Positions 2,620 through 29,730 of a stretch of DNA of 37,380 nt are shown here, one piece after another (the stretch's first letter is position 1; every line of letters starts with the position of its first letter). Below the pieces are notes generated by a model. That model was not told the origin of the DNA and did no database searches. It saw only the letters and a program-made list of their open reading frames with translations. Made by a program: the position numbers and the translations under genes. The DNA comes from a virus. Taxonomy: Duplodnaviria > Heunggongvirae > Uroviricota > Caudoviricetes. The stretch is taken from the IMG/VR virus record IMGVR_UViG_2718218398_000011; one strand, given 5' to 3'.

Positions 2620-2732
2620 AACTGAAGTTGCCCTGAAAATGAAATTTTTTTTGCACAACCGCAGAACTTTTCCGCAGGGCATCAGTCTTAATTAGTGCCA
2701 CTGCTTTTCTTTGATGTCCCCATTTTGTGGAG

Positions 2733-2775
2733 CCCATCAACCCCGCCATTTCGGTTCAAGGTTGATGGGTTTTTT
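2733..2775 (+). terminator. rho-independent terminator downstream of ybjL
   Basis: cccatcaacc ... ggttgatggg stem followed by tttttt. Confidence 0.5.
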
Positions 2776-2833
2776 GTTGCCTGAAATTTAAGCTGTTTAA
2801 AATCATGATGTTAGAAACACTGTTTTTTAACGA

Positions 2834-2855: not shown

Positions 2856-3074
2856 TCAAAGAGAGAGCGCCACCTGTCCTGATTTCATTGGATGCGGCTG
2901 AACCGGATTTGACTCTTTTGGCGTTGCAATCGAACGAACAAAAGTTTCATGGGTAACAAAAGTATGGCTGCAGTTAATGTTCTGGCACTGGTTGTAACGC
3001 TCTTTGGTCAATGAAGATACCTGAAAACTGCTGCGAGTATGGGCGGCACTTCCACACAGTGGGCAAATCATCAT
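2856..3074 (-). CDS. ogr: Ogr/Delta zinc-finger late-gene activator
   Basis: CPLC...CQNINC C4 zinc finger; 72 aa from the ATG preceded by GGGAGA; resembles P2 Ogr. The track ORF starts further upstream at 3107. Confidence 0.85.
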   Translation of the reverse strand: MMICPLCGSAAHTRSSFQVSSLTKERYNQCQNINCSHTFVTHETFVRSIATPKESNPVQPHPMKSGQVALSL

Positions 3075-3164
3075 TTTTCGAGTTCTCCCCATTTTTGCTA
3101 AATTCACAATAATGATACCGCATTATTCCATTTTGAAAACTTAAAAGTTCTCCATTGCGAAGAA

Positions 3165-4265
3165 TCATTCCATTTCGAAATCATCAATCTTCACTTCAAG
3201 CTCCAAACTGGTCGTAAAACCGTTATTCGGGCTGACAGTATGCGTCAGAGTCGTAATGGTCCATTCCGCATCATCTATCGGCTGTTTAAAGCCACTGACT
3301 TTCACTGGCATTTCCGTGTAGAGATCTGCCCGACCTTCTGCCAGTTGTAGCGAGAATGACGCAACGCCGCGTTGCAGGCGTTCCCACTGCATTTTCGCCG
3401 CCCGTTCGGCGTTGCTCCGGTTGGCATAGGTGCGATTAAGTACCAGCACGTTTTCATCTGTACCCACCAGGTAATCGCCCTGCTTCGCTTCCGGCTCTTT
3501 CTTCTGCTTCTTAGTCCTGCGCTTACGCTTCACCGTGGTGCTTTCTTTCTTCGCGGGTTCGCGGGTATGCAACCAGCTGGCAATTACGCCCGTGTAGGCT
3601 CCGCGATCTGCCAGGGTAAAGCGGTGACTGTCGCCGTCCTTACGTGTGATTGAGATCACCGGCAGTGGTTTACCGCTGGCGCTTTTGCCCTGTCCCTGCC
3701 GGATGAATAACAGATTGCCATTTTTCACCGACGCGATGGCACCGTACTGGCGCGCCAGCCGCATCAGAAAACTGCCGTCACTCTCATTAGTCTGGTCTAT
3801 ATGCTCCACGGGCTTATCCGACAGGTCTTTACCCAGTGCCATCTTCAGCTTATGACGCGCGGCTATTTCCTTCACCACTTCCCCGACAGTGGTCTTGTGC
3901 CACGATTTTTCACGGCGGGTATTCAGCGTTTCCCTAAAATCAGCACTTCGCGCCCGGATAGTCAGGCGGTCCGGTGCGCCAGTGTGTTCAATCTCGTCCA
4001 CTGTGAATGCCCCTTTCGGGAAAAGCGGCTGCCCCTTCCAGCCCAGCGCCAGCGTAATAACCGCACCACGGCGCGGCAGCACGATTTTTCCGTCAGCGTC
4101 ATCCAGCTCCAGATCAAGCTGGTCCGCTTCAAAGCCCCGGTTATCCGTCAGCGTCAAACTCATCAGGCGGTTATCCAGCACAGTGGTGATATCCCTGCCC
4201 TCAATACTGATGCTGAATGCGGGAGTTTTGTTGCCTTTGTTAAGCAGTTCAGAGCTGAAATTCAC
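3165..4265 (-). CDS. D: tail protein D (late control gene D)
   Basis: 366-aa translation is P2 gpD-like; position after U and T. Confidence 0.9.
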   Translation of the reverse strand: MNFSSELLNKGNKTPAFSISIEGRDITTVLDNRLMSLTLTDNRGFEADQLDLELDDADGKIVLPRRGAVITLALGWKGQPLFPKGAFTVDEIEHTGAPDRLTIRARSADFRETLNTRREKSWHKTTVGEVVKEIAARHKLKMALGKDLSDKPVEHIDQTNESDGSFLMRLARQYGAIASVKNGNLLFIRQGQGKSASGKPLPVISITRKDGDSHRFTLADRGAYTGVIASWLHTREPAKKESTTVKRKRRTKKQKKEPEAKQGDYLVGTDENVLVLNRTYANRSNAERAAKMQWERLQRGVASFSLQLAEGRADLYTEMPVKVSGFKQPIDDAEWTITTLTHTVSPNNGFTTSLELEVKIDDFEME

Positions 4266-8829: not shown

Positions 8830-10002
8830 TTACGCGCTGACCTGGCTGGCGAAATTCACCAGGTACTGATCGGTGATGCGCTGACGCAGCATCAGGTTTT
8901 CAAGTGGCGGCACTGGCGTGTAGTCGTAGTCGATGGTGAGTTTTCCGGCTTTCAGCGTGTCTTTGTCGTTCACCGACTCATCCAGCCAGCAATCACCACC
9001 AATGAGATAGCCCTGACTGACCAGGCTGCGCATTTTGGCGCGGATACCTTCGATAATGTCGCGGGCCAGCGACGGGTTAAGCGGTTTATCCACCGCCCAC
9101 ATGTGTGCTTCTGCCATCGTGTCCATCAGCACCTGCGCCGTGCGGGTGTAGTTTTCGAAGGCAAAGAGCGGGTCATCACTCAGGCAGCGGGAACCCCAGA
9201 AGCGGAAACCGTCTTTACGCACAAGCGTGGTGACGTCGTTCTGGTTCAGCAGACCTGCATCGGTTGCCGGGTCCTGCAGATCCCAGAACACATCTGCAGA
9301 AATTCCGGTGACACCGTTCACGCCCACGTTGGACAGGCTTTTGTGCCATCCGGTCTGCTCGTCAATTTTGGCGCGCAGACCAAGCGCACGAGCGGTGGCA
9401 TATGCCGTTGCTTCGGCATTCAGCACCGTGTCCCAGCCAGTAAAGTCAGGCCAGATCAGCATCCCTTCGCGCTGGCTGAAGTTTTCGCGGTAAGTGATCG
9501 CCTCCTGCACTGTCTTGCAGCCATACGCTGACAGGTAAGCAAATCCACGCAGGCTTTGCGCCACGCTCAGCAACTCAGTAGCCACCGCCTTGGTGTCGTG
9601 GCCTGGCACGCCGAGAATGCGCGGTTTAACGCCGAGCTGTGACTGGGCAGATAACAGGGCTTTCATACCTGTTTTTTTACCTTCAGCAGTCACTGCGCCG
9701 ATGATATTGGTCGTGGTTTCGTCTTCCGTTTCACCCTGCGGCACACGCACAACAATGGTCACGGGTTTTGCCTGGTCAGCGATGGCATCCAGCGAACGGG
9801 CCAGAGTACCGGACTCACCCGCTTTACCGCTGGCAGTCAGCACATCAGTGATCAGCACGGGTTTATTAAGAGGAAACATTTTTGCATCGGCATCATCGCC
9901 CGTGCAGACCATACCCACGATGGCGGTGCTCACCGTGGTAATAGATCGGGTGCCTTCGTTGACTTCAACAACGCGCACCCCGTGGTGGTAATCCTGAGCC
10001 AT
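8830..10002 (-). CDS. FI: contractile tail sheath protein FI
   Basis: 390 aa, P2 FI-like. Confidence 0.9.
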
Positions 10003-10078
10003 AGTGGCGAACCTCCTGATTGGATTAGGCTTCGCCCTATGTTGAAGTGATTGTGCCTGACAAACAGCTAAACGCAGT

Positions 10079-10096
10079 TGTGTCGTTATTCACACA
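10079..10096. promoter_or_regulatory. candidate Ogr-dependent late promoter element (PF-like)
   Basis: TTGTGT-N8-ACACAA dyad (TGT-N12-ACA core), about 85 bp upstream of the FI start. Confidence 0.45.
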
Positions 10097-10144
10097 AAAT
10101 AACGGTATTTGTCTGCTTGCAGGGATAATCAACATAATGCTGAT

Positions 10145-10717
10145 TCAGGGGGATTCATTGATCTTATTTGCCGGAAATTTTCTATAAATGGTAGAAACGC
10201 CTACATCAAAAATCAGTGCAATACGCTGTCTTGATTCTCCGGCCTCGAGTAAACGCCCAATCTGTGCCCACTGTTCGGTGGTCAACTTAGGACGGCGTCC
10301 ACCTACTCTGCCTTTGGCACGAGCTGCAGCCAGCCCTGCCCTGGTACGTTCAACTATCAGTTCGCGTTCCATTTCAGCCAGGGCACCCATGACATGAAAA
10401 AAGAAACGGCCCATTGGGGTACTGGTATCAATACTGTCAGTCAGGCTTCTGAAATTCACACCACGCTGGCGCAACTCTTCTATCAGCGTAACAAGATGCC
10501 GCATACTGCGCCCCAACCTGTCCAGCTTCCAGACAACCAGCGTGTCTCCTGCCGATAGTGTCCTGAGTAGTTTTTTCAGCCCCGGTCTGTCGGACTTAGT
10601 GCCACTGATTTTGTCCTCAAAAATCCGCTCACATCCCGCGCAGTTCAGTGCATTACGTTGCAAATCGGTGTTCTGGTCATTTGTTGACACGCGTACATAG
10701 CCAATAAGCATGATCAT
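10145..10717 (-). CDS. serine DNA invertase (Hin/Gin/Pin/Cin family)
   Basis: N-terminal GYVRVSTNDQ serine-recombinase motif and C-terminal HTH; 190 aa; adjacent to an inverted-repeat crossover site. Confidence 0.9.
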   Translation of the reverse strand: MIMLIGYVRVSTNDQNTDLQRNALNCAGCERIFEDKISGTKSDRPGLKKLLRTLSAGDTLVVWKLDRLGRSMRHLVTLIEELRQRGVNFRSLTDSIDTSTPMGRFFFHVMGALAEMERELIVERTRAGLAAARAKGRVGGRRPKLTTEQWAQIGRLLEAGESRQRIALIFDVGVSTIYRKFPANKINESP

Positions 10718-10766
10718 CCCCCTGAATAAAAACCGGAGATGATGCCAGTTAGCTGTTACCTCTGCA

Positions 10767-10794
10767 TTTTCTTAAACGTTGGTTTGGGAGAAGC
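10767..10794. repeat. inversion site, left (gix/hix-like)
   Basis: TTCTTAAACG-TT-GGTTTGGGAGAA; the inner half and core are the exact inverse of the site at 12623..12650. Confidence 0.6.
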
Positions 10795-11113
10795 GGCAAA
10801 ACGGAATGTGGGAACAGGGGAAAATCAGATACCTGATATGTCAGCTTATTCATCAGGATCTGGCTGGCAAAAATTGCCTGATGGTTCAATTGAACAGTGG
10901 GGAAGAATTAATTTCCCGAATAACGCCGCGGCGGTATCTACAAATGTGACTTTCACCATTCCTTTTACGCAGGAGCCAGACGTAGTGATTGTATATGACG
11001 GCGGTTTTGGTGGTGGGAATATGTGGGGCGCAACTAACTGGACGAAAACAGGTTTCGTTGCTCATTGTAACTATGGCTTTGAAGGTGGAGCCTTCTACGC
11101 GAAAGGGCGTTAA
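10781..11113 (+). CDS. alternative tail-fibre C-terminal exon (silent in this orientation)
   Basis: Open frame runs through the left site with the same GGT TTG GGA GAA (GLGE) codons as gene H at the right site; no independent start expected. Confidence 0.55.
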   Translation, partial: GLGEAAKRNVGTGENQIPDMSAYSSGSGWQKLPDGSIEQWGRINFPNNAAAVSTNVTFTIPFTQEPDVVIVYDGGFGGGNMWGATNWTKTGFVAHCNYGFEGGAFYAKGR

Positions 11114-11115
11114 TT

Positions 11116-11556
11116 ATGAAATATTTGTATGTTGATAATCTGGCGTACCCTTATGCCCTCCAGTCTGTTTACGCTGCAAAAGGCCAATGGCCCGAAGGTA
11201 AAGGCGTGGATATAGACGAAGCTATTTTCAGGGAATATTTCCATGATACGCCGCCTGACGGTAAGTACAGAATTACCGGAGACGATGGAATGCCAGCATG
11301 GGCAGATGTTCCACCGCCAACACGTGAAGAACAAATTGCATCAGCCGAAACTAAAAAGCAGCAATTGATTAATCAGGCCAACGATTATATGAACAGTAGA
11401 CAATGGGCTGGTAAAGCGGCTATTGGTCGTCTGAAAGGTGAGGAACTGGCGCAATATAATTTGTGGCTGGATTATCTGGACGCACTGGAGCTGGTCGATA
11501 CTTCCAGTGCACCAGATATTGAATGGCCTACTCCTCCGGCAGTTCAGGCCAGATGA
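11116..11556 (+). CDS. tail fibre assembly protein (alternative)
   Basis: 146 aa; C-terminus (WLDYLDAL...APDIEWP) resembles the Tfa on the opposite strand. Confidence 0.7.
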   Translation: MKYLYVDNLAYPYALQSVYAAKGQWPEGKGVDIDEAIFREYFHDTPPDGKYRITGDDGMPAWADVPPPTREEQIASAETKKQQLINQANDYMNSRQWAGKAAIGRLKGEELAQYNLWLDYLDALELVDTSSAPDIEWPTPPAVQAR

Positions 11557-12130
11557 CATCCGGCGCGGTGCTGATATCTGTTGCCGTCACCGCGTCAATG
11601 TAATCCAGCACAGCGTTAAGCCGGGTTGTTTCTGCCTGCGTCAGTTTCCGCCCGGCCTGTAATTTCAGTTGAATCAGACTAATGGAAGCCATTGCAGTAT
11701 CAATCAGTGACTGACGCTGTGCTTCTGCCGCGTCTACTGCGGCGCGATGCTGTGCCTCAGTATCGGTCACCCATTTCTCACCATCCCATTTATCGTATGG
11801 CGTTAATGGGGCGATAGTGGTTGTATTTTCGGGGTAATCACCCGGAGTTGTGATTTCTTTGGTGTCTCCCGTTTCGGTGTTATAGACGATTTCACCGCGA
11901 TGGTCTGGCACATATTCCCATGAGTTTAAATCTGCCGAACGGCAGATTGCATAACCAGCCTTATGTATACCAGGTTCATCCAGACAGGAATATGCCGGGA
12001 TACCAACACCAACGGCAAGATATTCATTTGAAGTGGAAATATATTCCCGAGTTTCACCATCATAGCTATAGACGGTAATATTCCCCGCCTTCGTGGCAAT
12101 AAGCTCGCTATTTAATACAGCGTTATCCAT
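11528..12130 (-). CDS. tail fibre assembly protein
   Basis: 200 aa, directly downstream of H; conserved Tfa C-terminus (LDYIDAV...APDVIWP). Confidence 0.8.
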   Translation of the reverse strand: MDNAVLNSELIATKAGNITVYSYDGETREYISTSNEYLAVGVGIPAYSCLDEPGIHKAGYAICRSADLNSWEYVPDHRGEIVYNTETGDTKEITTPGDYPENTTTIAPLTPYDKWDGEKWVTDTEAQHRAAVDAAEAQRQSLIDTAMASISLIQLKLQAGRKLTQAETTRLNAVLDYIDAVTATDISTAPDVIWPELPEE

Positions 12131-13686
12131 TATGCAGCTCTCACAATATAATTAAATGACGTATTACGTGGTCGTACTGATATCCATGCACTATAAAAAC
12201 CGTCTTCTGCTGTTCTCTGCGTTCCCGTAATGGAGTTATCAGACGAAGCTGGAACATAGTTACTGCTGTCGCCAGCTTTAGAATTAGCAGGTATCCCGCT
12301 TGTTTGTACTTTATCGGCGGAAGCAAATGCTATCCCCACCTTGACAGAGGTTGTTGTATCAACCCCGTAATAATCCTGTAACGCTGTACGAATAAAAGTT
12401 GCATCCTGACCACTGAGTAGTGATCGTCCACTGTCTACACCGCGTCCATCATCCCAGCCACGAATAAACTCACCGCGTAAATCAGGCAATTTATTTGTCG
12501 GGTAAGCCTTTGCCAGTTCCGGGTATTCTTCAGCAGAAAAAGCTGCACCATTGCATTTCAACCAGCCTGTCGGTGGTGTAGCTGAAGGCCACGGAACAGG
12601 CACACCAACCGGTAATGCTGAACCTTCTCCCAAACCAAGGTATGCGAGAAGACCAGCAACATCCTTTCCACTCAAATTAGTCAGCGTATTGTCCAGCGGT
12701 TGTTTACCTGCCAGTGCATTAAGCATTGTCGTGGCAAAGTTCGGGTCATTCCCCAGCGCCGCCGCCAGTTCGTTCAGTGTATCCAGTGCCGCAGGTGCAG
12801 AACCCACCATTGCCGCAATCGCCGATTTCACAAATGCCGTGGTGGCAATCTGTGTATTGTTGACCGACTGTGCCGCAGTCGGTGCGGTTGGCGTTCCGGT
12901 GAGTGCCGGACTCGACAGCGGCGCTTTCAGTGCCAGCGCATTGTTAATGGTGGTACTGAATTTCGGATCATTGTTAATGGCTACGGCTATTTCTTTCAGC
13001 GTGTCCAGCGTGGCTGGCGCATCATTAATAAGAGCCGTCAGTGCCGCCTGAACAAATGCGGTGGTCGCAACCTGCGTGGTGTTATTCCCCGTCGCTGGCG
13101 TTGGCGCTTTGGGTGTCCCGGTAAACGTAGGACTTTCTTTGGCTGCATACTGTGAATGCGGGTCCGGTGCGGCAAGATGTTTTGCCATCTGATCATCCGC
13201 GTACACCTTCAGCTCCAGTGCCTTGTCATCCACATACTTGCGGGTTGCCAGCACTACAGCAGGGTCGATTTTCAGGGTGATATTGTCCGTGCTGCTGGTA
13301 ATCAGCACCATGCGCACGGTCTGGGTACGCCCGCTGCCTTCAGCCAGTTGCGGCTTATAGCTTTCCGGGCAGTTGCCCACGGCAATCAATGCCCCTGACT
13401 CATCAAACAGGCCCACTTCACGTATCCACCAACCGCCCTCGTTTTCAGGGATCACCTGTTCAGCAATAATCTGGCTGCTGTTCTGTGGGTCGATATAGAG
13501 CATATTCAGCGCAGCCCGACGTTTCTCATTTACCAGTGCACTCTGCTTTGCGTCCGGCGTCGGCAATGTTCCGCCACCATCGCCCACCGCCATATGGGTA
13601 ATTTTTAGCGGCACACCGAGCGCGGCGGCGCTGGCAAGTTTCGCCGCGCCAATATCCGTCAGCAGGGTATAAAATTTTGTGCTCAT
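12130..13686 (-). CDS. H: tail fibre protein H (constant N-terminus plus currently fused variable C-terminus)
   Basis: 518 aa, P2 gpH-like N-terminus with repeat-rich shaft; the inversion site lies inside the codons for LGLGEG. Confidence 0.9.
   Translation of the reverse strand: MSTKFYTLLTDIGAAKLASAAALGVPLKITHMAVGDGGGTLPTPDAKQSALVNEKRRAALNMLYIDPQNSSQIIAEQVIPENEGGWWIREVGLFDESGALIAVGNCPESYKPQLAEGSGRTQTVRMVLITSSTDNITLKIDPAVVLATRKYVDDKALELKVYADDQMAKHLAAPDPHSQYAAKESPTFTGTPKAPTPATGNNTTQVATTAFVQAALTALINDAPATLDTLKEIAVAINNDPKFSTTINNALALKAPLSSPALTGTPTAPTAAQSVNNTQIATTAFVKSAIAAMVGSAPAALDTLNELAAALGNDPNFATTMLNALAGKQPLDNTLTNLSGKDVAGLLAYLGLGEGSALPVGVPVPWPSATPPTGWLKCNGAAFSAEEYPELAKAYPTNKLPDLRGEFIRGWDDGRGVDSGRSLLSGQDATFIRTALQDYYGVDTTTSVKVGIAFASADKVQTSGIPANSKAGDSSNYVPASSDNSITGTQRTAEDGFYSAWISVRPRNTSFNYIVRAA
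12623..12650. repeat. inversion site, right (gix/hix-like), inside gene H
   Basis: TTCTCCCAAACC-AA-GGTATGCGAGAA; the inner half is the reverse complement of the left site's inner half. Confidence 0.6.
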
Positions 13687-14288
13687 GGATTCACTCTCAT
13701 TGTGTCAATAACATGGACCGCCCCGCCTTCATGCGCGGTGCCGCCAGAAATAATTGTTTCGTTGATATACGGATAGATCGTGATTTCTTCGCCAAGATAG
13801 CTGGCGGCTCCCACCCAATGCGGGCCGCTGGTCTGCAGATTGATGGACATGCCGATCATGTGGCGGCTACATGGTTTGGCATCGCTTATCAGTCGCTCAA
13901 GTTCCAGATAGGTATCTTCAGTGATGCCCTGGTCCTGCACGCCGATATCCAGGCGAAACGTGCCCGGAGCCTCTCCGGTCTGCCACCACTCAATAATGCG
14001 GATCAGGAATCCGAACGGTTCCACCACCCGCCGCACGGCACTGGTGGTTCCTTTATGCTGATGAATATAAAAAGCATCCTTCACTACCTGGCGTTTGACG
14101 CTTTCTGTCCAGCCCTCGTCCCAGCGATCCACAGAGAACGCCCAGGCGAGATAAGGCAGGAAGCTGACCGGACAGGTAGCCGGATTCCACAAGTCACGCA
14201 GCGGCACCTGCAGATCAGAAATCCCGCTACAGGTTTGCGCCAGTCGGCGCTCCAGTGAAGTTGAACCCGGTGGCAGCAGACTATTCAT
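13683..14288 (-). CDS. I: baseplate protein I
   Basis: 201 aa, P2 gpI-like (WNPATCP...LAWAFSVDRW). Confidence 0.85.
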   Translation of the reverse strand: MNSLLPPGSTSLERRLAQTCSGISDLQVPLRDLWNPATCPVSFLPYLAWAFSVDRWDEGWTESVKRQVVKDAFYIHQHKGTTSAVRRVVEPFGFLIRIIEWWQTGEAPGTFRLDIGVQDQGITEDTYLELERLISDAKPCSRHMIGMSINLQTSGPHWVGAASYLGEEITIYPYINETIISGGTAHEGGAVHVIDTMRVNP

Positions 14289-15189
14289 CCGTTCCTCCGT
14301 TGGTTACGCTCCACTGCGTACATGATGCCGCCTGTGTTTTGTTCAGGACCACATCCGCCAGAGGAGAAGCCAGCTCCACACGCTGCACACCCTCAACATG
14401 CAGGGCGGCAAAGATGGCGCTACGGCGAATATCCCGACCAAGACGCGTCTGACTGGCGATGTACTTCTGCAGGCTGGCTTTTGCCGCTGCCATTACCGGC
14501 TCTGCTTCCGGTCCCGGATAGAGAAAAATGGTGGCTTCCACGCGATACGGGATGATTTCTGCGCTGCGAACCGTCAGACGGTCAGCCACCGGGCGGACGT
14601 TCTCACTGTTCAGAGCTTTTTCCACCACGTCCAGCAGGTCTTTTTCTGCAGTTCCATCGCCTTCGCGGCTAAGGACAGTCAGCACCACCTCTGCAGGTGC
14701 CGGGCTGGTTGCACTGGCATCCGCCACCCTACCGTCGGCGCTTCGGGCATGAAATTCATAAGCTGCAGTTGGCCCCGCAACAGAAAGCCCTTCAAAGGCT
14801 GCAGGCACACGCAGGCGTAACGCTTCATCGCTTTCCATCACAGCTGCAACGGGCGGCACAGCATCATTATCAGCAGGCGTCACCGTCAGGCGTGTCACGT
14901 TGTAGTTGGCAGCGAGCTGGTCAAGATCGCCGCCCATCGCGTAAGCCACCATCACCGCCTGCGCGGCTTCGTTAATGCGCTGGCGCAGAAGCAACTCACG
15001 GTAAGCGTTCTCCTGCAACAATTTAGTGACGGGTTCAGATTCCAGTTCCAGCGTGCGGATCACGGCTTCCTGCTCATCTTTCGGATGAAGCGCCACAAAT
15101 TCTGCCTTGCGTTCGGCAAGCAGCGTCTCAAAGTCCGGCACATCCACAATCTGCGGTGCAGGCAACTGCGAAAGGTCAATCATTGCCAT
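14281..15189 (-). CDS. J: baseplate assembly protein J
   Basis: P2 gpJ-like; start placed at MAMIDLSQLP by comparison with the P2 J N-terminus. The track ORF starts at 15228. Confidence 0.85.
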   Translation of the reverse strand: MAMIDLSQLPAPQIVDVPDFETLLAERKAEFVALHPKDEQEAVIRTLELESEPVTKLLQENAYRELLLRQRINEAAQAVMVAYAMGGDLDQLAANYNVTRLTVTPADNDAVPPVAAVMESDEALRLRVPAAFEGLSVAGPTAAYEFHARSADGRVADASATSPAPAEVVLTVLSREGDGTAEKDLLDVVEKALNSENVRPVADRLTVRSAEIIPYRVEATIFLYPGPEAEPVMAAAKASLQKYIASQTRLGRDIRRSAIFAALHVEGVQRVELASPLADVVLNKTQAASCTQWSVTNGGTDE

Positions 15190-15535
15190 TCTCTGCTCCT
15201 GTTGATACGGAAAGGGACACAGGCACACCGTTATTCCGCCGCCCGGTCAGCTCCACCACCATAGAACCGTCAAAGTTGCTGTTGATGGTGATGGAATCCA
15301 GCGTCAGTCGTGGCTCCCAGCGACTCAGCGCCACATACACTGCCGACATGACCTGCAGGCGTAATGCCGGATTTTGTGGCTGGTCTATCAGTGCCGACAG
15401 CAGGGAACCATATTCCCGACGGGCAATGCGGCTACCCTGCGGCGTCAACAAAATGTCCCGCACCGACTGGCGCAGATGGTCAATATCAGTAATGGCTTTA
15501 CCGCTGGTATTGTTCATCCCGCTATAAAGCGTCAT
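15176..15535 (-). CDS. W: baseplate protein W (gp25/GPW family)
   Basis: 119 aa, P2 gpW-like. Confidence 0.85.
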   Translation of the reverse strand: MTLYSGMNNTSGKAITDIDHLRQSVRDILLTPQGSRIARREYGSLLSALIDQPQNPALRLQVMSAVYVALSRWEPRLTLDSITINSNFDGSMVVELTGRRNNGVPVSLSVSTGAENGND

Positions 15536-16110
15536 ACCGGGCCTCCGGTTGTGTCGCCGCCTTTCAGGACGCCAGTATGCTGATGTGCATCAACCACAAT
15601 CCCGTTAGAACTCATCACTCCGCCGCCCTGGGTAACGCCACCATTGATCACCACTTCGCTGTTAATGCGCGTGTGGTCAGCCTCCAGTACAAACTCACTG
15701 GTTTTCATGGTGATGTTGTCAGCGGCCTCAATGACCATTGATTTGATGCCCCTTACATACCAACGCCCGGTGGCAGGTTCGTATTCAAACCAGCCACCGT
15801 CAGGATGTTCTGTCACGCAGGCGTCTGCCGACGTCGACGGTGGCGCGAACTGATTCGAATAGATGGCGGGCAGCGCAAAGGCTGTTTCCAGATTGCCGCC
15901 CAGACTCAGTAGCACCACCTGCTCACCTTCCGATGGTCGCCACCATGTCCGGGCATTACCCGCGCGCAGCGTCAGCCAGTTAATCCAGTTGGTTTCAAGG
16001 TCGCCCGTTTTCACCCGGCAAAGCCAGTTTTCCCTGTCCACTTCGGTGACTACCCCTGTGCGGATCAGGTTGGTGATAAGGCGCATGATTTCGGTTAATT
16101 GTGCGTTCAT
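15532..16110 (-). CDS. V: baseplate spike/assembly protein V
   Basis: 192 aa, P2 gpV-like. Confidence 0.85.
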   Translation of the reverse strand: MNAQLTEIMRLITNLIRTGVVTEVDRENWLCRVKTGDLETNWINWLTLRAGNARTWWRPSEGEQVVLLSLGGNLETAFALPAIYSNQFAPPSTSADACVTEHPDGGWFEYEPATGRWYVRGIKSMVIEAADNITMKTSEFVLEADHTRINSEVVINGGVTQGGGVMSSNGIVVDAHQHTGVLKGGDTTGGPV

Positions 16111-24957: not shown

Positions 24958-26610
24958 TTACAAATACCGTCTAACACGTATTTTATTAATGCTCGACTCA
25001 TTTCCAATTCTTATCAAAGCATTTCTCGCTTTTTCTCCGATGCGTTTCATTCTTTCTGAACCATTGCTATACCCACCAAACTTAAGAGCAGTAGCTATTA
25101 TTGAATCACCACCATCAAGAATGACTTTTTTAAATAAATCATAGTAGTCATCCTCTGAGGCAGCATCCAATATTTCCTCGTGCCTATCAGACCAACCATT
25201 CTGACTTGATAATTTTATTAGAACATCCTTTATAGAACCATCCAGATTTAAAGTAGTAGAATAATCTTGGATTTTTGACTTTAACTCAGCATCTTTTATA
25301 GGATGAACATTCATGTAAATAGATTGAACATATTCCTTAAGAGCATCATTGCCGTAATTAATAAATTTACTTATTAATTCACTTGCTTTAATATTTTCAC
25401 CTAAATCTCTATACAGTCCGACAACACTATCCAAGTCACTTGGAGTTACATACTCTATCCCACCAACCACCGCTTGATATAGATTATCAATAACCTGATT
25501 TCGGTTATCTTCAAATGAATTATAGAAAAGCTTCCATGCTTCAAACAGTGAACCTCGCTTACTATCACGGATAAGTTCATCATTCCTTAGACTTACTTGC
25601 CTTTGGAAATTGTTCATATCAATATATCCATGCCTTACCATGTCTATAAGGACTTCATCAAGTTCGTTTGTTTTTTTATAATCATATATAAGCAAAGTAT
25701 TAAGCCATTTTTTTTCTTTTCCATCCTCTTTTTCATCACGCATATAGATATTTCTCATATTTCTAATATACTCCAATGATGGTACATCTCCATCTGGAGT
25801 AAATGCGTAATGACTCCAACAATACAAAGTTAAGGAGTGTGCGACTTCATTTGCAATTTTTTCAAAATTAACGTTAATGCCAGGTAACAAGGCTAGCAAA
25901 AACCGCTCTATTTTTTTCAGTATCCTAATATTCTTAATACCCAGGGAAATGGAGTATTTGCTTAATAATTTATGAACATCAGAATTATTTTTATATGCTA
26001 TAACTGCACATTCTTCTGGAGTAGGATTATAGGTAATCTCTCTATCAATAACCTTTTCTTTATAAGTGGAGTAGTCATCCATACCACTTGTCCCGTTATT
26101 AAGTAAAAGAACCACCTTACAATTTTTTTGTTCTTTCAATAAAGAAACCAACCCTAAGACATCTTTCACTTCTAAATTTTTACCACGTCTTTCTAAGTCA
26201 TCTATGACTACAATAACATTAGTAATTGACATAAATGACATTGACTCAAGTGTCGTAGTGAAATTTTTCAAAAAAGGTGTATCTTTTAACACACGAGCGG
26301 TCTTTCTAGTGCAGGATTCAAGAAGCCCCTTTGCATTTTGTGTTGCTGTTTTTAAATTAGGTTTGTTTCCAATGAAATCTTTCGTAATTGTATTTTCAAA
26401 GATGGAGTATTTTAATGCGTCCAATGAATTAACACCAAAAAGAGAGACGTAACTATATCTATTAAATGCAATCTTATTTTTATTTTCCTTTAAGAAAGCA
26501 TTCCAAGTATAGGTTTTCCCAATCCCCCACTCACCCTGAATAGCCATTACCTCAGGTTCTGCAGATGAAATAAAGTCTGACAACTGTTCTTTAATATAGT
26601 CTAATGACAT
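24958..26610 (-). CDS. KAP-family P-loop NTPase (cargo; candidate anti-phage protein)
   Basis: Walker A GEWGIGKT and Walker B VVIDDLERR in KAP-type arrangement; start placed at MSLDYIKEQL, which has GGAGA six nt upstream (track ORF starts at 26640); strongly AT-rich. Confidence 0.7.
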   Translation of the reverse strand: MSLDYIKEQLSDFISSAEPEVMAIQGEWGIGKTYTWNAFLKENKNKIAFNRYSYVSLFGVNSLDALKYSIFENTITKDFIGNKPNLKTATQNAKGLLESCTRKTARVLKDTPFLKNFTTTLESMSFMSITNVIVVIDDLERRGKNLEVKDVLGLVSLLKEQKNCKVVLLLNNGTSGMDDYSTYKEKVIDREITYNPTPEECAVIAYKNNSDVHKLLSKYSISLGIKNIRILKKIERFLLALLPGINVNFEKIANEVAHSLTLYCWSHYAFTPDGDVPSLEYIRNMRNIYMRDEKEDGKEKKWLNTLLIYDYKKTNELDEVLIDMVRHGYIDMNNFQRQVSLRNDELIRDSKRGSLFEAWKLFYNSFEDNRNQVIDNLYQAVVGGIEYVTPSDLDSVVGLYRDLGENIKASELISKFINYGNDALKEYVQSIYMNVHPIKDAELKSKIQDYSTTLNLDGSIKDVLIKLSSQNGWSDRHEEILDAASEDDYYDLFKKVILDGGDSIIATALKFGGYSNGSERMKRIGEKARNALIRIGNESSINKIRVRRYL

Positions 26611-26670
26611 GTACATTCTCCGAGATAGATAGTCATCCATATTATAACCCGAGTACTATCAAAGTAATAA

Positions 26671-26696
26671 GCGCGCGCTCGTATCCCCGCCACGCC
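26671..26696 (-). other. candidate cos site (cohesive-end region)
   Basis: Minus strand reads GGCGTGGCGGGGATACGAG CGCGCGC, resembling the P2/186 cohesive end as I remember it (GGCG[A/T]GGCGGGGAAAGCA.. followed by GCGCGC); a G-rich block in an AT-rich island at the expected map position. Confidence 0.4.
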
Positions 26697-27039
26697 TGCC
26701 CGCTTTATGTAGTGGTTTTCATGCACCTGCACGACATAAGCAAAAGCACGCCAGTTCTGGCTGGCCTCAGCAAAAACGATCCTCTAACGATCATGCGATC
26801 TCATGCGTCATAGTCATGCACAGCCAAGGGAAGCGTAAATCCGTATCTGAATGACCGCTGAAAAGCTAATCATACGGGTTTACAAAGATGAAAGTCCGCT
26901 GTGAGCGAAAAGCGGATATTCCCATTGTTTTATCTTGATCTAGTAAAAACAATACCCCCTTTACAAACAAAAATAATGAGTTACTATTTTCAGCTCCTTT
27001 TAACCCAAAGGTTTATAATTAAAAAGGAATGGCATACCG

Positions 27040-27693
27040 ATGAGTAAATACAAACTTTTCGCACAGCTATCAAGATATTCACTTGAAGCGCAGATTGATG
27101 ATTTCGAAAAATATATCCTAGGAGCAGGCGGCCAAAACAGAGTTGACTTAGCGGAATTAAAAAAAGCATATGAAGATGAAAAAAAGAATGCTCCTGACGA
27201 TTATATTAATTACTTAGAAGACTATTATTCAGAGCAATATGATTTCTTAGTTAACATACAACCAAATATTTTTAATAAATCTGCTTTGGTATCTTTATAC
27301 TCATGCTTAGAGCACAACCTAAACGACTATTGCAATATATGTCAAAGGATTGTAAACACCAATATATCAGTAACCGATTTTAATGGTGATGGCATCCACA
27401 AAGCAAAAAGATATTTAACAAAATTAATGGATATAAACTTTGGCCTGTCACAAGAGTGGCAATTCATGACAGAGTTTAACAAAGTAAGGAATTGCATAGT
27501 TCATGCTAATGGAGACATTAAAAAAATGAGCACAGCTGTAGCCTTAAAAAATATCATTGATAAAACACCTACTCTTTCATTAAACAATGAAAATAATATA
27601 ATAATCTCCTTAAATTATTTAAAAGATACTATCACAAAAATTAGAAAACTCTTTCAATGGTTATATACACATCTGGATCAATCATCGAAATGA
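27040..27693 (+). CDS. hypothetical protein with HEPN-like RNxxxH motif (cargo; candidate abortive-infection RNase)
   Basis: 217 aa; EFNKVRNCIVHANG at residues about 146-158 fits the Rx4-6H HEPN signature; AAGGAA ribosome-binding site; AT-rich. Confidence 0.5.
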   Translation: MSKYKLFAQLSRYSLEAQIDDFEKYILGAGGQNRVDLAELKKAYEDEKKNAPDDYINYLEDYYSEQYDFLVNIQPNIFNKSALVSLYSCLEHNLNDYCNICQRIVNTNISVTDFNGDGIHKAKRYLTKLMDINFGLSQEWQFMTEFNKVRNCIVHANGDIKKMSTAVALKNIIDKTPTLSLNNENNIIISLNYLKDTITKIRKLFQWLYTHLDQSSK

Positions 27694-27793
27694 ATACGAT
27701 AACATCTCAGTTTGTTATTGGTCTATTTTTGAAAACAGCTATCGATGATATTAGTCTGTTCTTCGTCAATTAATATGCAATCCATTCATGACA

Positions 27794-27815
27794 CAGGGCT
27801 GCTGTTACAGCCCTG
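27794..27815. terminator. hairpin between the convergent HEPN-like and Abi_C-like genes
   Basis: cagggctg-ctgtta-cagccctg, a perfect 8-bp stem. Confidence 0.35.
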
Positions 27816-27942
27816 ACAACCTTAGACTTCAATCGATTCAGAGATCTCTAACGCATCATCACCCGTTGAACTCACAGCGATAAGTAGACGCTGGCGGCAA
27901 CACAGAAGTGTAGCGGGAATTTGAACCACATAATTTGGTTTG

Positions 27943-28809
27943 TTAGATGGCTTTGCTTCGATATTCAATTTCTAAAATCGCCTTTGTCATTGCCGCAATA
28001 GTTATAGCTTCTACCATAGTCAATTCAGGCTTGTTCAAGCTTCCGTGTCCAGCAGTAGGTAATTTGTTGCGTAAATCATAAATATCTTTAACAGCATCAA
28101 TAAGATTCTTAGGTAATTTTGACATTTTTTCGAACTGTTTAAAAAAACCACCCAATGACTCATTTGCCACATTCGGGTTTTGAGTGATTTCCTTAGCCAT
28201 AGTTTCTAAAATATTAGAGGCTGCGTGCAGTGCACCTGCCGGATCATTATTATCCAAGCAATTATTCATTCTATCTATTTGCTGAACGATATTTGGGTGC
28301 AATCTTTTTAAGTAATCACTAGCCAATTCTTCATTAAAATTTTTGACACTTTCAAAAACATCGCAATCTAAATAAAATTTAGGATTGACTGACATCCATG
28401 TATATTTCCAATCATTTTCTAAATTATCTTTTTCCGCAATACGCCTGCCAGTGTCCTGATCTATCTCATCAACATATTTACACATATAATCGGCGTAGTA
28501 GTGTAAATATCTAAATGATATTTCTGGGCAAAAATTACTAACTGATGCAAGGCCGCCATATTCTTTTGTAGTAACTGTAGGGACTTCTTCATCACATAAA
28601 GATGAGAAAGTGGTTCTTTCCCAAAATTCGCCCAACTCTTTTTCTTTCCTAGTTGCCATACCAGCTATCACATTGATGCTTGAGAGCAAAACTACACTCT
28701 GATAGTATCGAGGACATCTGTATGAACTAGCATATGGGCATATTGATGATGCTTTACGATTAATACGCTCTTTTTCCCACCAATTTTTATCAGGAATAAT
28801 TCTTTGCAT
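27943..28809 (-). CDS. hypothetical protein with Abi_C-like C-terminal domain (cargo; candidate abortive-infection protein)
   Basis: 288 aa; the C-terminal ~100 aa (ALHAASNILETMAKEI ... DLRNKLPTAGHGS ... ITIAAMTKAILE) resemble the Abi_C/HEPN-type domain as I recall it; AT-rich. Confidence 0.45.
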   Translation of the reverse strand: MQRIIPDKNWWEKERINRKASSICPYASSYRCPRYYQSVVLLSSINVIAGMATRKEKELGEFWERTTFSSLCDEEVPTVTTKEYGGLASVSNFCPEISFRYLHYYADYMCKYVDEIDQDTGRRIAEKDNLENDWKYTWMSVNPKFYLDCDVFESVKNFNEELASDYLKRLHPNIVQQIDRMNNCLDNNDPAGALHAASNILETMAKEITQNPNVANESLGGFFKQFEKMSKLPKNLIDAVKDIYDLRNKLPTAGHGSLNKPELTMVEAITIAAMTKAILEIEYRSKAI

Positions 28810-29297
28810 AATTTAGCTACTATCTCACGAGTGAATGAATGTTTAGCCTTCTGCACAGTTTATCAGTTCCGGCATGCCTACTGCTACCCCACTGATTCAA
28901 CTTCAAGTTATGAGTTAAAGCGATTCGGTTTCGCTAGATGACACACTAGTGTTAATTTATGGATAAAAATTTATCACTTAAAATTAACTAATGCCTGTTG
29001 CGACCAAAAGTGTGCTGGAATATTATTTTCGTCTGACCTATTATCAAGCTAATTATCCAAATTAGAGTTACTCTCATTCATCAGCAACAAATAAATACAC
29101 CTGTTCACTTTCTCAAAGTGTTCCTGTTTTATTTTTAAAGCAAACAACGCCGCCTATTCGTCCGAATGTACAACAAACATCAGGTTCTGACACAAAGTGG
29201 ACGATCACTTATCAAAATGACCGCCCACCTTACACCTCATTTCACTCGTTGCCCAAACTCCCCCCAACAGGATAAATCCTCTTGGGGGCAACGTTTC

Positions 29298-29531
29298 TTA
29301 ATGCAGCCAGCTGTCGTCTTCCCACACCTTCTGCATAATTTTCATCACTTGTTTTCTTTCTTCATCCAGTTGCAGTCCGGTCAGTTCCACACCGTTAGAG
29401 CTACCTTTACGGATACGAATTACCGTTTTTGGATACAGGGGGCGCAGATTGCGGTAAAGCTCGGATTCAAGGGCGTCCAGGGTAGACTGGCTAATCTTCT
29501 GCTCTTTATCGATCATTATTTCAATGCGCAT
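29298..29531 (-). CDS. DinI-family protein (Tum C-terminal-like; SOS-induced)
   Basis: 77 aa from MRIEIMIDKEQ...; DinI-like throughout (RIEI..., ...VWEDDSWL). The track ORF starts at 29603 and overlaps the upstream gene. Confidence 0.8.
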   Translation of the reverse strand: MRIEIMIDKEQKISQSTLDALESELYRNLRPLYPKTVIRIRKGSSNGVELTGLQLDEERKQVMKIMQKVWEDDSWLH

Positions 29532-29541
29532 AAAAGTCACC

Positions 29542-29730
29542 TCAACTGATGACATCCATTGAGCGGTTGTATTCGTGGGTTCTGATCTTTGCCATGAGTT
29601 CATCAGTCAATTCAGAAACCCACTGCAGAGCCAGCCCCTTCTCTTCATCACTACACTCACTAGCCGCTACAAGCTTAAGAAAAAAATCAATGCGCTGGAG
29701 CTTCAAAGACTCCAAAAAATAGTCCTGCAT
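29542..29730 (-). CDS. small SOS-operon protein (possible Tum N-terminal-like antirepressor part)
   Basis: 62 aa from the ATG preceded by AGGAGG; first gene downstream of the LexA box. The track ORF starts at 29832, upstream of the box. Confidence 0.5.
   Translation of the reverse strand: MQDYFLESLKLQRIDFFLKLVAASECSDEEKGLALQWVSELTDELMAKIRTHEYNRSMDVIS

Follow-up and report, generated by a model that had tools for sequence, protein, structure and literature searches.

The window analyzed here, a 37,380-nucleotide stretch of viral DNA (Caudoviricetes; IMG/VR record IMGVR_UViG_2718218398_000011), carries a DNA invertase gene, two inverted recombination sites, and a tail-fibre gene, H, with a silent alternative end. 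We read this arrangement, with a probability of about 0.9, as a working Gin/Cin/Pin-type switch that sets the tail-fibre operon of an Escherichia coli prophage (186/Fels-2-like, P2 family) to one of two states by DNA inversion. A first-pass annotation, made from the DNA letters without database searches, had already described an invertible tail-fibre segment driven by a Hin/Gin-family invertase. The coordinates of the features are collected in Table 1.

In an inverted-repeat search of positions 9900-13800, the pair 10767-10793 and 12624-12650 scored highest. The two sites are quasi-palindromic, 26 bp long, and inverted relative to each other, with 21 of the 26 bases identical, an exactly shared 15-nt core, and TT at the center of both, as in P1 cix; the center of Mu gix is GA/TC. 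The first-pass annotation was right about the shared half-site and core dinucleotide and about where the sites lie, but its limits (10767..10794 and 12623..12650) made each of them 28 nt, 2 nt more than the 26-bp site. The 14-mer TTGGTTTGGGAGAA has exactly two occurrences in the window by exact search, one on each strand. When the window was scanned with a consensus built from the gix, cix, and pix half-sites of Mu, P1, and e14 (cutoff, at least 14 of 18 specified positions), these two sites and no third one were returned from the whole 37 kb, compared with one match in 20 shuffles. Each site agrees with the consensus at 17 of 18 positions. The site proximal to the invertase gene is identical to the pinE-proximal e14 site at 25 of 26 positions and the distal one, inside H, to the e14 site in stfP at 23 of 26, so that the comparison with gix, cix, and pix proposed earlier as a check came out in favor of true recombination sites. 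A motif search allowing 3 mismatches gave 3 matches against 3.5 expected and is uninformative, and we place evidential weight on the exact 14-mer matches and the half-site scan alone. Because just two sites reach 14/18 in the window, the system is predicted to be a simple two-state switch; a shufflon or other multiple-inversion system, such as Min of p15B or the three-repeat P2 prophage of E. coli E2348/69, was ruled out on this count.

The distal site falls in H at ...LLAYLGLGE|GSALP, and the proximal site lies in frame before ...VGLGE|AAKRN. Inversion in silico at 10779-10780 and 12637-12638 keeps H residues 1 to 353 (...LLAYLGLGE) without a frameshift, replaces GSALPVG... (165 amino acids [aa]) by AAKRNVG... 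(107 aa), and moves the other chaperone gene directly downstream of H. The fusion, H', is an uninterrupted 460 aa, alongside the 518-aa H, and the earlier claim that the left site stands in frame before an alternative exon at the same GLGE codons thus holds. The in-frame result depends on the exact crossover, since an alternative site register, 10769-10794, gave a frameshifted H, whereas 10767-10792 fuses in frame. Each exon is directly followed by its own Caudo_TAP gene, with TAATG and TAAttATG junctions, and the ATG of tfa overlaps the stop codon of H (TAATG). These two tail-fibre assembly genes, tfa and tfa', are convergent and overlap by 29 nt at their 3' ends, as had been described. The sequence shows that inversion exchanges the last 165 codons of H and the chaperone gene behind them for a 107-codon exon with a chaperone gene of its own, keeping both the reading frame and the order of the operon. 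The constant part of H is the same in both orientations in the loci L001 and L002.

Both forms of the protein are found verbatim in NCBI, the predicted H' as WP_104021973.1 / ANK07242.1 and the 518-aa H as WP_104021959.1 / ANK06250.1. Both ANK06250.1 (H) and ANK07242.1 (H') have E. coli O25b:H4 as their organism, and their numbers differ by about 1000; a single ST131-type genome may hold two sibling prophages that have these cassettes set in opposite orientations. The distal 111 aa of the plus-strand open reading frame (ORF) 10739-11113 match the Gp53-like_C tail-fibre domain. This ORF, MMPVSCYLCIFLNVGLGE..., extends the silent exon upstream through the recombination site and the invertase promoter region. 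RefSeq lists such silent-exon ORFs as genes in their own right, under the names 'gp53-like domain-containing protein' or 'phage tail protein' (L001 3840-4232; L004 stfE); the silent cassette has most likely misled the annotation here.

Table 1. Positions of the switch components in the window (position 1 is the first nucleotide of the window)
Feature	Positions	Strand	Sequence or match	Remark
DNA invertase, 188 aa	10145-10711	-	MLIGYVRVS...; Pfam Resolvase 2e-53 and HTH_7 1.5e-15	
Candidate recombinational enhancer	10627-10690			invertase gene nt 22-85
Candidate Fis 15-mer (G-N13-C)	10676-10690	-	GTGTCAACAAATGAC	invertase gene nt 22-36
Candidate Fis 15-mer (G-N13-C)	10627-10641	-	GCGCGGGATGTGAGC	invertase gene nt 71-85
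Conserved motif, extended -10-like, candidate invertase promoter	10739-10747	-	TGGCATCAT	from upstream comparison
Proximal pix-like site	10767-10792	+	TTTTCTTAAACG TT GGTTTGGGAGAA	core dinucleotide 10779-10780
Invertible segment	10779-12638			core dinucleotide to core dinucleotide, about 1.86 kb
Hv', silent alternative C-terminal exon, 107 aa after GLGE	10781-11113	+	Gp53-like_C, Pfam PF21882; PHROG tail-fibre families	
tfa', 146 aa	11116-11556	+	Pfam Caudo_TAP 4e-32	cognate to silent exon
tfa, 200 aa	11528-12130	-	Pfam Caudo_TAP 5e-32	cognate to expressed exon
Hv, currently expressed variable C-terminal part, 165 aa after GLGE	12130-12636	-	Pfam Collar; PHROG tail collar fibre 2e-67	
Gene H, 518 aa	12130-13686	-	Phage_tail_fib N-terminal domain and Collar domain (Pfam)	
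Distal site inside H	12625-12650	-	TTCTCGCATACC TT GGTTTGGGAGAA	core 12637-12638
H constant N-terminal part, about 350 aa	12637-13686	-	Pfam Phage_tail_fib N-terminal domain 2e-64	outside segment

The repeat sits at a conserved protein motif, and it might be a by-product of homology at GLGE, with any rearrangement being RecA dependent instead of site specific; far longer repeats do exist in some relatives, such as one of 215 bp in another E2348/69 prophage. Here, however, the identity spans just 15 nt, a length at which RecA recombination is not efficient. Each arm is a 12-2-12 quasi-palindrome with the Gin/Cin/Pin half-site consensus, including the outer halves, which the two arms do not share, and the outer half of the proximal site lies in noncoding DNA before the invertase gene. 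We compared this position in 80 loci obtained by searching for the invertase in one genome per species. In many Enterobacterales the proximal site is at a fixed -80 from the invertase start, with its partner 1.3 to 2.1 kb upstream, and homologous proximal sites at -80 were found in 11 species-representative loci other than the window. The core dinucleotides covary between partners: in 18 of 20 two-site loci from other species, with segments of 1.3 to 2.1 kb, the cores are complementary on one strand (TT/AA or TC/GA), as expected if religation needs identical cores in inverted orientation. On the short identity, the site architecture, the fixed position, and the core covariation, we rejected homologous recombination at the GLGE motif, an explanation that we regard as exceedingly improbable. 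The exceptions to the paired-core rule are Trabulsiella odontotermitis NZ_JNGH01000101.1 (L011/L022) and Enterobacter sp. ECC-219 (L051), whose two detected sites do not pair but repeat one core on a single strand (AA/AA and TC/TC). On the Trabulsiella contig there are two invertase genes about 5 kb apart, and both exceptions may be multisite or tandem systems.

Inversion at exactly these sites is supported by public genomes in both states. Among complete E. coli genomes, 111 records are colinear with the window and 80 with its in-silico inverted form (threshold, at least 80% of a 3.9-kb query); the best full match to this 3.9-kb region in RefSeq complete genomes is 97.9%. The clearest pair are the yak isolates E. 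coli NQ3 and LS4, with chromosomes of 5,196,957 and 5,196,956 bp, respectively. Over the 9,943 bp fetched they are identical apart from one exact inversion, the crossover of which maps inside the shared 15-nt part, and their sites are identical to those of the window. Furthermore, 20 of the 80 species-representative contigs stop 63 to 130 bp upstream of the invertase start, many of them inside the 26-bp proximal site (loci including L006, L012, L013, L018, L026, L035, and L039; one example starts within the site as AAACCAACG...). We read these breaks as mixed orientations in the sequenced cultures. Two contigs, of 715 and 716 bp, hold little beyond the invertase gene.

Published data on relatives, read-pair and PCR results among them, agree. 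Inversion of e14 in clonal cultures was seen by sequencing, with the repeat AAACCTTGGTTTGGGAGAAGG and 51% forward, and was confirmed by PCR (Goldberg et al. 2014). The same study found by whole-genome sequencing that the P2 remnant of E2348/69 inverts at 2,977,580-2,979,467, with 93% forward and the repeat printed as TTGTTTGGGAGAAG and also as TTG(G)TTTGGGAGAAG; its PCR covered e14 and a four-variant locus of enteropathogenic E. coli. Fin of Fels-2 inverts a 2.7-kb prophage segment and can replace Hin, according to the account of Kutsukake et al. 2006 given in PMC3535392 (the paper is in the reference list of PMC4272514). A 2024 preprint notes that the tail-fibre hotspot of P2-like phages frequently has a DNA invertase, together with inversion of the genes next to it. 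Inversion is thus a real event in members of this element family.

The invertase gene lies outside the segment, with its start 56 nt from the proximal site. The mechanically called ORF is 10145-10717 (190 aa, minus strand); its start is most likely the ATG at 10711, two codons further in, because a well-spaced Shine-Dalgarno sequence, GGGGGA, precedes it and Gin, PinE, and Cin start there. The protein aligns end to end with crystallized Gin sequences (PDB 3UJ3; E = 1e-92), and the Hin DNA-binding domain 1HCR matches residues 143 to 187 without gaps. Its sequence identity is 85% to e14 PinE, 77% to P1 Cin, 73% to Mu Gin, and 86% to Fels-2 Fin; the invertases annotated in Escherichia phages 500465-1 and Cartapus are 99.5% identical to it. 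The earlier assignment of the adjacent gene to the Hin/Gin family is supported by the Resolvase and HTH_7 domains and by the Gin match, and by its sequence the protein is to be placed most precisely in the e14 Pin/Fels-2 Fin subgroup. At the two ends of the invertase ORF lie the arms of a perfect 12-nt inverted repeat, ATTCAGGGGGAT / ATCCCCCTGAAT (10143-10154 and 10716-10727), one over the Shine-Dalgarno sequence and the other over the last codons and the stop; since about 0.45 such repeats are expected by chance in 3.9 kb, it is probably meaningless.

In the alignment with Gin, Cin, and PinE, the catalytic set is present, with S9 in YVRVSTNDQ and R7, D64, R65, and R68; in serine recombinases the serine is the nucleophile and the Arg/Asp/Arg/Arg set is established as catalytic. 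H106 and M114, which we take to be the positions of known Fis-independent Gin and Hin mutants, are both wild type. At the equivalents of the Fis-contact residues the protein reads Q-I-G-R-L, and helix B reads L-K-K-L-L-R, basic at all three enhancer-contact positions, on an assumed numbering offset to the N-terminal part of Hin. In Hin, Q151, R154, and L155 contact Fis and the basic residues 47, 48, and 51 contact the enhancer, and these positions are conserved in Fis-dependent invertases and not in resolvases (McLean et al., PMC3798978). At the level of sequence, the protein thus shows every feature that marks the Fis- and enhancer-dependent subclass (Hin/Gin/Cin/Pin), to which it would belong.

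A candidate recombinational enhancer was located within the 5' part of the invertase gene. In the P1 record, the enhancer of Cin is placed at nt 19 to 90 of cin, and the window stretch is homologous to it in position, with an identity of 56/72 to P1 and 63/72 to pinE. The candidate spans 64 bp, and the center of its proximal 15-mer is about 97 bp from the center of the proximal site. The Hin enhancer is 65 bp long, with a Fis site at each end, and lies about 100 bp from hix, so the geometry in the window fits the published Hin description. Among 76 distinct invertase genes, the frequency of identical codons in pairs with the same amino acid was 0.59 in codons 7 to 30, compared with 0.38 in codons 31 to 135, and synonymous conservation peaks at each end of the candidate enhancer and dips between. 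These results support a conserved cis element embedded in the invertase coding sequence, possibly the enhancer.

Twelve upstream regions were compared (the window, Mu gin [L003], e14 pinE [L004], L087, and eight other loci), and in all 12 TGGCATNAT or a near variant stands about 30 nt before the invertase start. It is followed by a conserved CTTTT and then by the Shine-Dalgarno sequence. This motif is likely the -10 region of the invertase promoter. The matching -35 position would fall right beside the proximal site, at its outer end, so autoregulation may be possible. A simple sigma-70 consensus scan of the upstream region called no invertase promoter, and the invertase leader has no significant fold (z = -0.64). 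A weak terminator-like hairpin was called by the scan at 10731-10750; it overlaps the conserved TGGCATCAT motif, and we do not read it as a terminator.

The steps of the proposed mechanism are drawn from the Hin and Gin literature. Invertase dimers would bind the two 26-bp sites and, together with Fis on the enhancer at the 5' end of the invertase gene, assemble an invertasome on supercoiled DNA. All four strands would be cut at the central TT/AA via Ser9, one pair of subunits would rotate by 180 degrees, and the ends would be religated. A lysogen population would then give virions with two receptor-binding tips, a form of host-range bet-hedging by analogy with the Mu G and P1 C segments.

Several points weigh against this reading. 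Both orientations have been found in relatives and not in the window molecule itself. At the end of its outer half the proximal site has ...AAACG, where ...AAACC is usual, yet e14 shares ...AAACG and inverts. The raised synonymous conservation at the 5' end of the gene may have arisen for other reasons, and phylogeny makes the compared sequence pairs nonindependent. Fis binding, Fis dependence, and enhancer function are suggested by sequence features, and a switch of host range between collar-type and Gp53-like tips is suggested by the analogy with Mu and P1 alone.

The first of these points would also fit a frozen relic, in which the sites and the gene are kept but inversion in this copy has stopped, say through too weak expression of the invertase or silence of the prophage, and the cassettes are a record of past switching. 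The lack of a consensus promoter call in the sigma-70 scan fits this as well, as does the strong orientation bias of some relatives, such as the E2348/69 P2 remnant. On the other hand, the invertase ORF is intact with all catalytic and Fis-contact residues, both sites keep their 17/18 agreement, the conserved TGGCATNAT is retained, and the exact invertase protein occurs on at least 1000 contigs. H and H' made from exactly these cassettes are also both in NCBI. We therefore regard a relic as improbable and a working two-state switch as the better account.

It could also be asked whether the invertase acts mainly in trans on other loci, such as e14, pix-type sites of other prophages, or pseudo-sites, which would be compatible with a local switch. 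Fin is able to stand in for Hin in inverting the Salmonella H segment, the window sites are nearly identical to those of e14, and in the E2348/69 prophage at the same chromosomal site the V-W-J-I-Hc block is inverted between hybrid site-like 26-mers. What makes a mainly trans-acting enzyme very improbable is that the complete cis set, with paired sites, in-frame exons, chaperones, and an enhancer about 100 bp from a site, is conserved across species, which argues that the local switch is the selected function.

A related proposal is that the invertase occasionally recombines a true site with pseudo-sites or with sites of coresident prophages (e14 or a sibling P2-like prophage), giving larger inversions that break the late operon. 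We consider it unlikely, though not far-fetched; if true, such off-site inversions would drive prophage decay or domestication. In E2348/69 (L086, NC_011601.1 871000-881500), the inverted V-W-J-I-Hc block corresponds to window positions 12632-16110 and is inverted relative to its flanks. It is bounded by TTATGCTAAACG TA GGTATGTGAGAA and TTCCAAGTAACC TA CGTTTATGAAAA (L086 2732-2757 and 7491-7516), with a TA core. In the same prophage gene S is truncated, and a 384-aa hypothetical gene takes the place of the normal invertible segment. The prophage looks as though an aberrant rearrangement by an invertase had inactivated it. The listing of H and H', built from the exact window cassettes, under one E. 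coli organism name also bears on this proposal.

The first-pass annotation had called the system Mu, P1, or e14 like, and it is closest to the Pin system of e14. The P segment of e14 in E. coli K-12 (stfP-tfaP / tfaE-stfE-pinE) shares the convergent tfa pair with the same 29-nt 3' overlap; TfaE is 89% identical to the tfa product of the window and TfaP 73% identical to the C-terminal half of that of tfa'. In e14 as in the window, transcription of the invertase gene leads away from the segment, the proximal site stands about 55 to 80 nt upstream of the gene, and the core is TT. However, e14 is a defective lambdoid remnant, whereas the window segment lies in an apparently complete P2/186-like late operon, and the fibre tips differ: Hv is 57% identical to StfE, and the Gp53-like_C Hv' is unlike the StfP tip. 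Fels-2 of Salmonella LT2 belongs to the same phage group (P2/186-like, Felsduovirus), and its invertase adjoins a gpH-like gene, but its segment is longer, 2.7 kb compared with 1.86 kb. The E2348/69 P2 remnant has the repeat, an adjacent invertase, and the same kinds of cassettes (a collar-type exon, a tfaE-like gene, tfa', and a gp53-like exon), with parts of the segment 90 to 93% identical in DNA to that of the window. It differs in lacking the H constant part, with an integrase fragment abutting the segment, in its degenerate distal site (14/18), and in its invertase gene, of about 75% DNA identity.

More distant are the G segment with Gin of Mu and the C segment with Cin of P1. They share the constant fibre N terminus outside the segment, two opposed exons inside it, each with a chaperone gene, the 26-bp sites, and the enhancer in the 5' coding region of the invertase gene. 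Mu gin points away from the segment, like the window gene, but P1 cin points toward its segment and has cixL overlapping its 3' end. Both segments are larger than that of the window (about 3 kb in Mu and 4.2 kb in P1), Mu has GA/TC as its core, and the phage backbones are different. Hin/hix of Salmonella shares the enzyme subclass, the Fis-contact residues, the basic helix B, and the site-enhancer geometry of about 100 bp, but what Hin turns around is a promoter, and its gene is within the inverted segment, whereas the window system swaps coding exons and has its invertase outside.

The surrounding prophage was assigned from its gene order and early genes. On the ORF map and the RefSeq annotation of the colinear locus L001, the late genes follow the P2 order, ogr-D-U-T-E-FII-FI ... 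H-I-J-W-V ... capsid genes, P, and Q, with the replication gene A. The early region gives Pfam matches to GPA, CI, CII (CP76), Dam, and Int. The prophage is P2-like (Peduoviridae), and its CI/CII type points to the 186/Fels-2 branch. In canonical P2 the order is H-G-terminator-fun(Z)-FI, with fun(Z) and no invertase between G and FI; in the window, the silent cassettes and the invertase gene sit in the fun(Z) position, in agreement with the earlier remark that P2 itself has no such segment.

The left flank (ybjL and then RybB) is 99.9% identical to E. coli. The small RNA gene rybB (2700-2778, plus strand; Rfam, 105 bits) is about 200 nt from the prophage end (ogr/D genes, about 2900-3200), and a P2-like prophage is found beside ybjL at the same place in several E. 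coli genomes, including E2348/69. No att repeat was found inside the window, which stops within the integrase gene, with the other prophage end beyond it. Between the portal gene Q and the replication gene A, at the position of the old/tin hotspot of P2, there is an AT-rich cargo island (24958-29600). It encodes a 560-aa KAP-family P-loop NTPase (24958-26640, minus strand; Pfam PF07693; PADLOC candidate PDC-S49, 2e-25; phrog_4740). Two orphan ORFs of the island have no Pfam or PHROG match, one of 217 aa (27040-27693, plus strand), with a weak PADLOC match to RTasHEPN (1e-5), and one of 288 aa (27943-28809, minus strand). The island is possibly anti-phage defence cargo.

The arrangement as such is already known: it has been described in P2-like prophages, its inversion has been observed in close relatives, and it is annotated in RefSeq and in phage records. 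It therefore carries little weight as a discovery, being a classic phage bet-hedging device that was read correctly from raw sequence. Its value lies in annotation: the silent exon is routinely called as an independent "gp53-like" ORF, two lengths of H are on record, and the ORF caller probably places the invertase start two codons too early. The switch also explains why short-read assemblies break at this point, and it is relevant wherever P2-like prophages or their tail-fibre modules are used in host-range engineering or typing. By analogy with Mu and P1, one should expect two receptor specificities side by side among the phage induced from such a lysogen.

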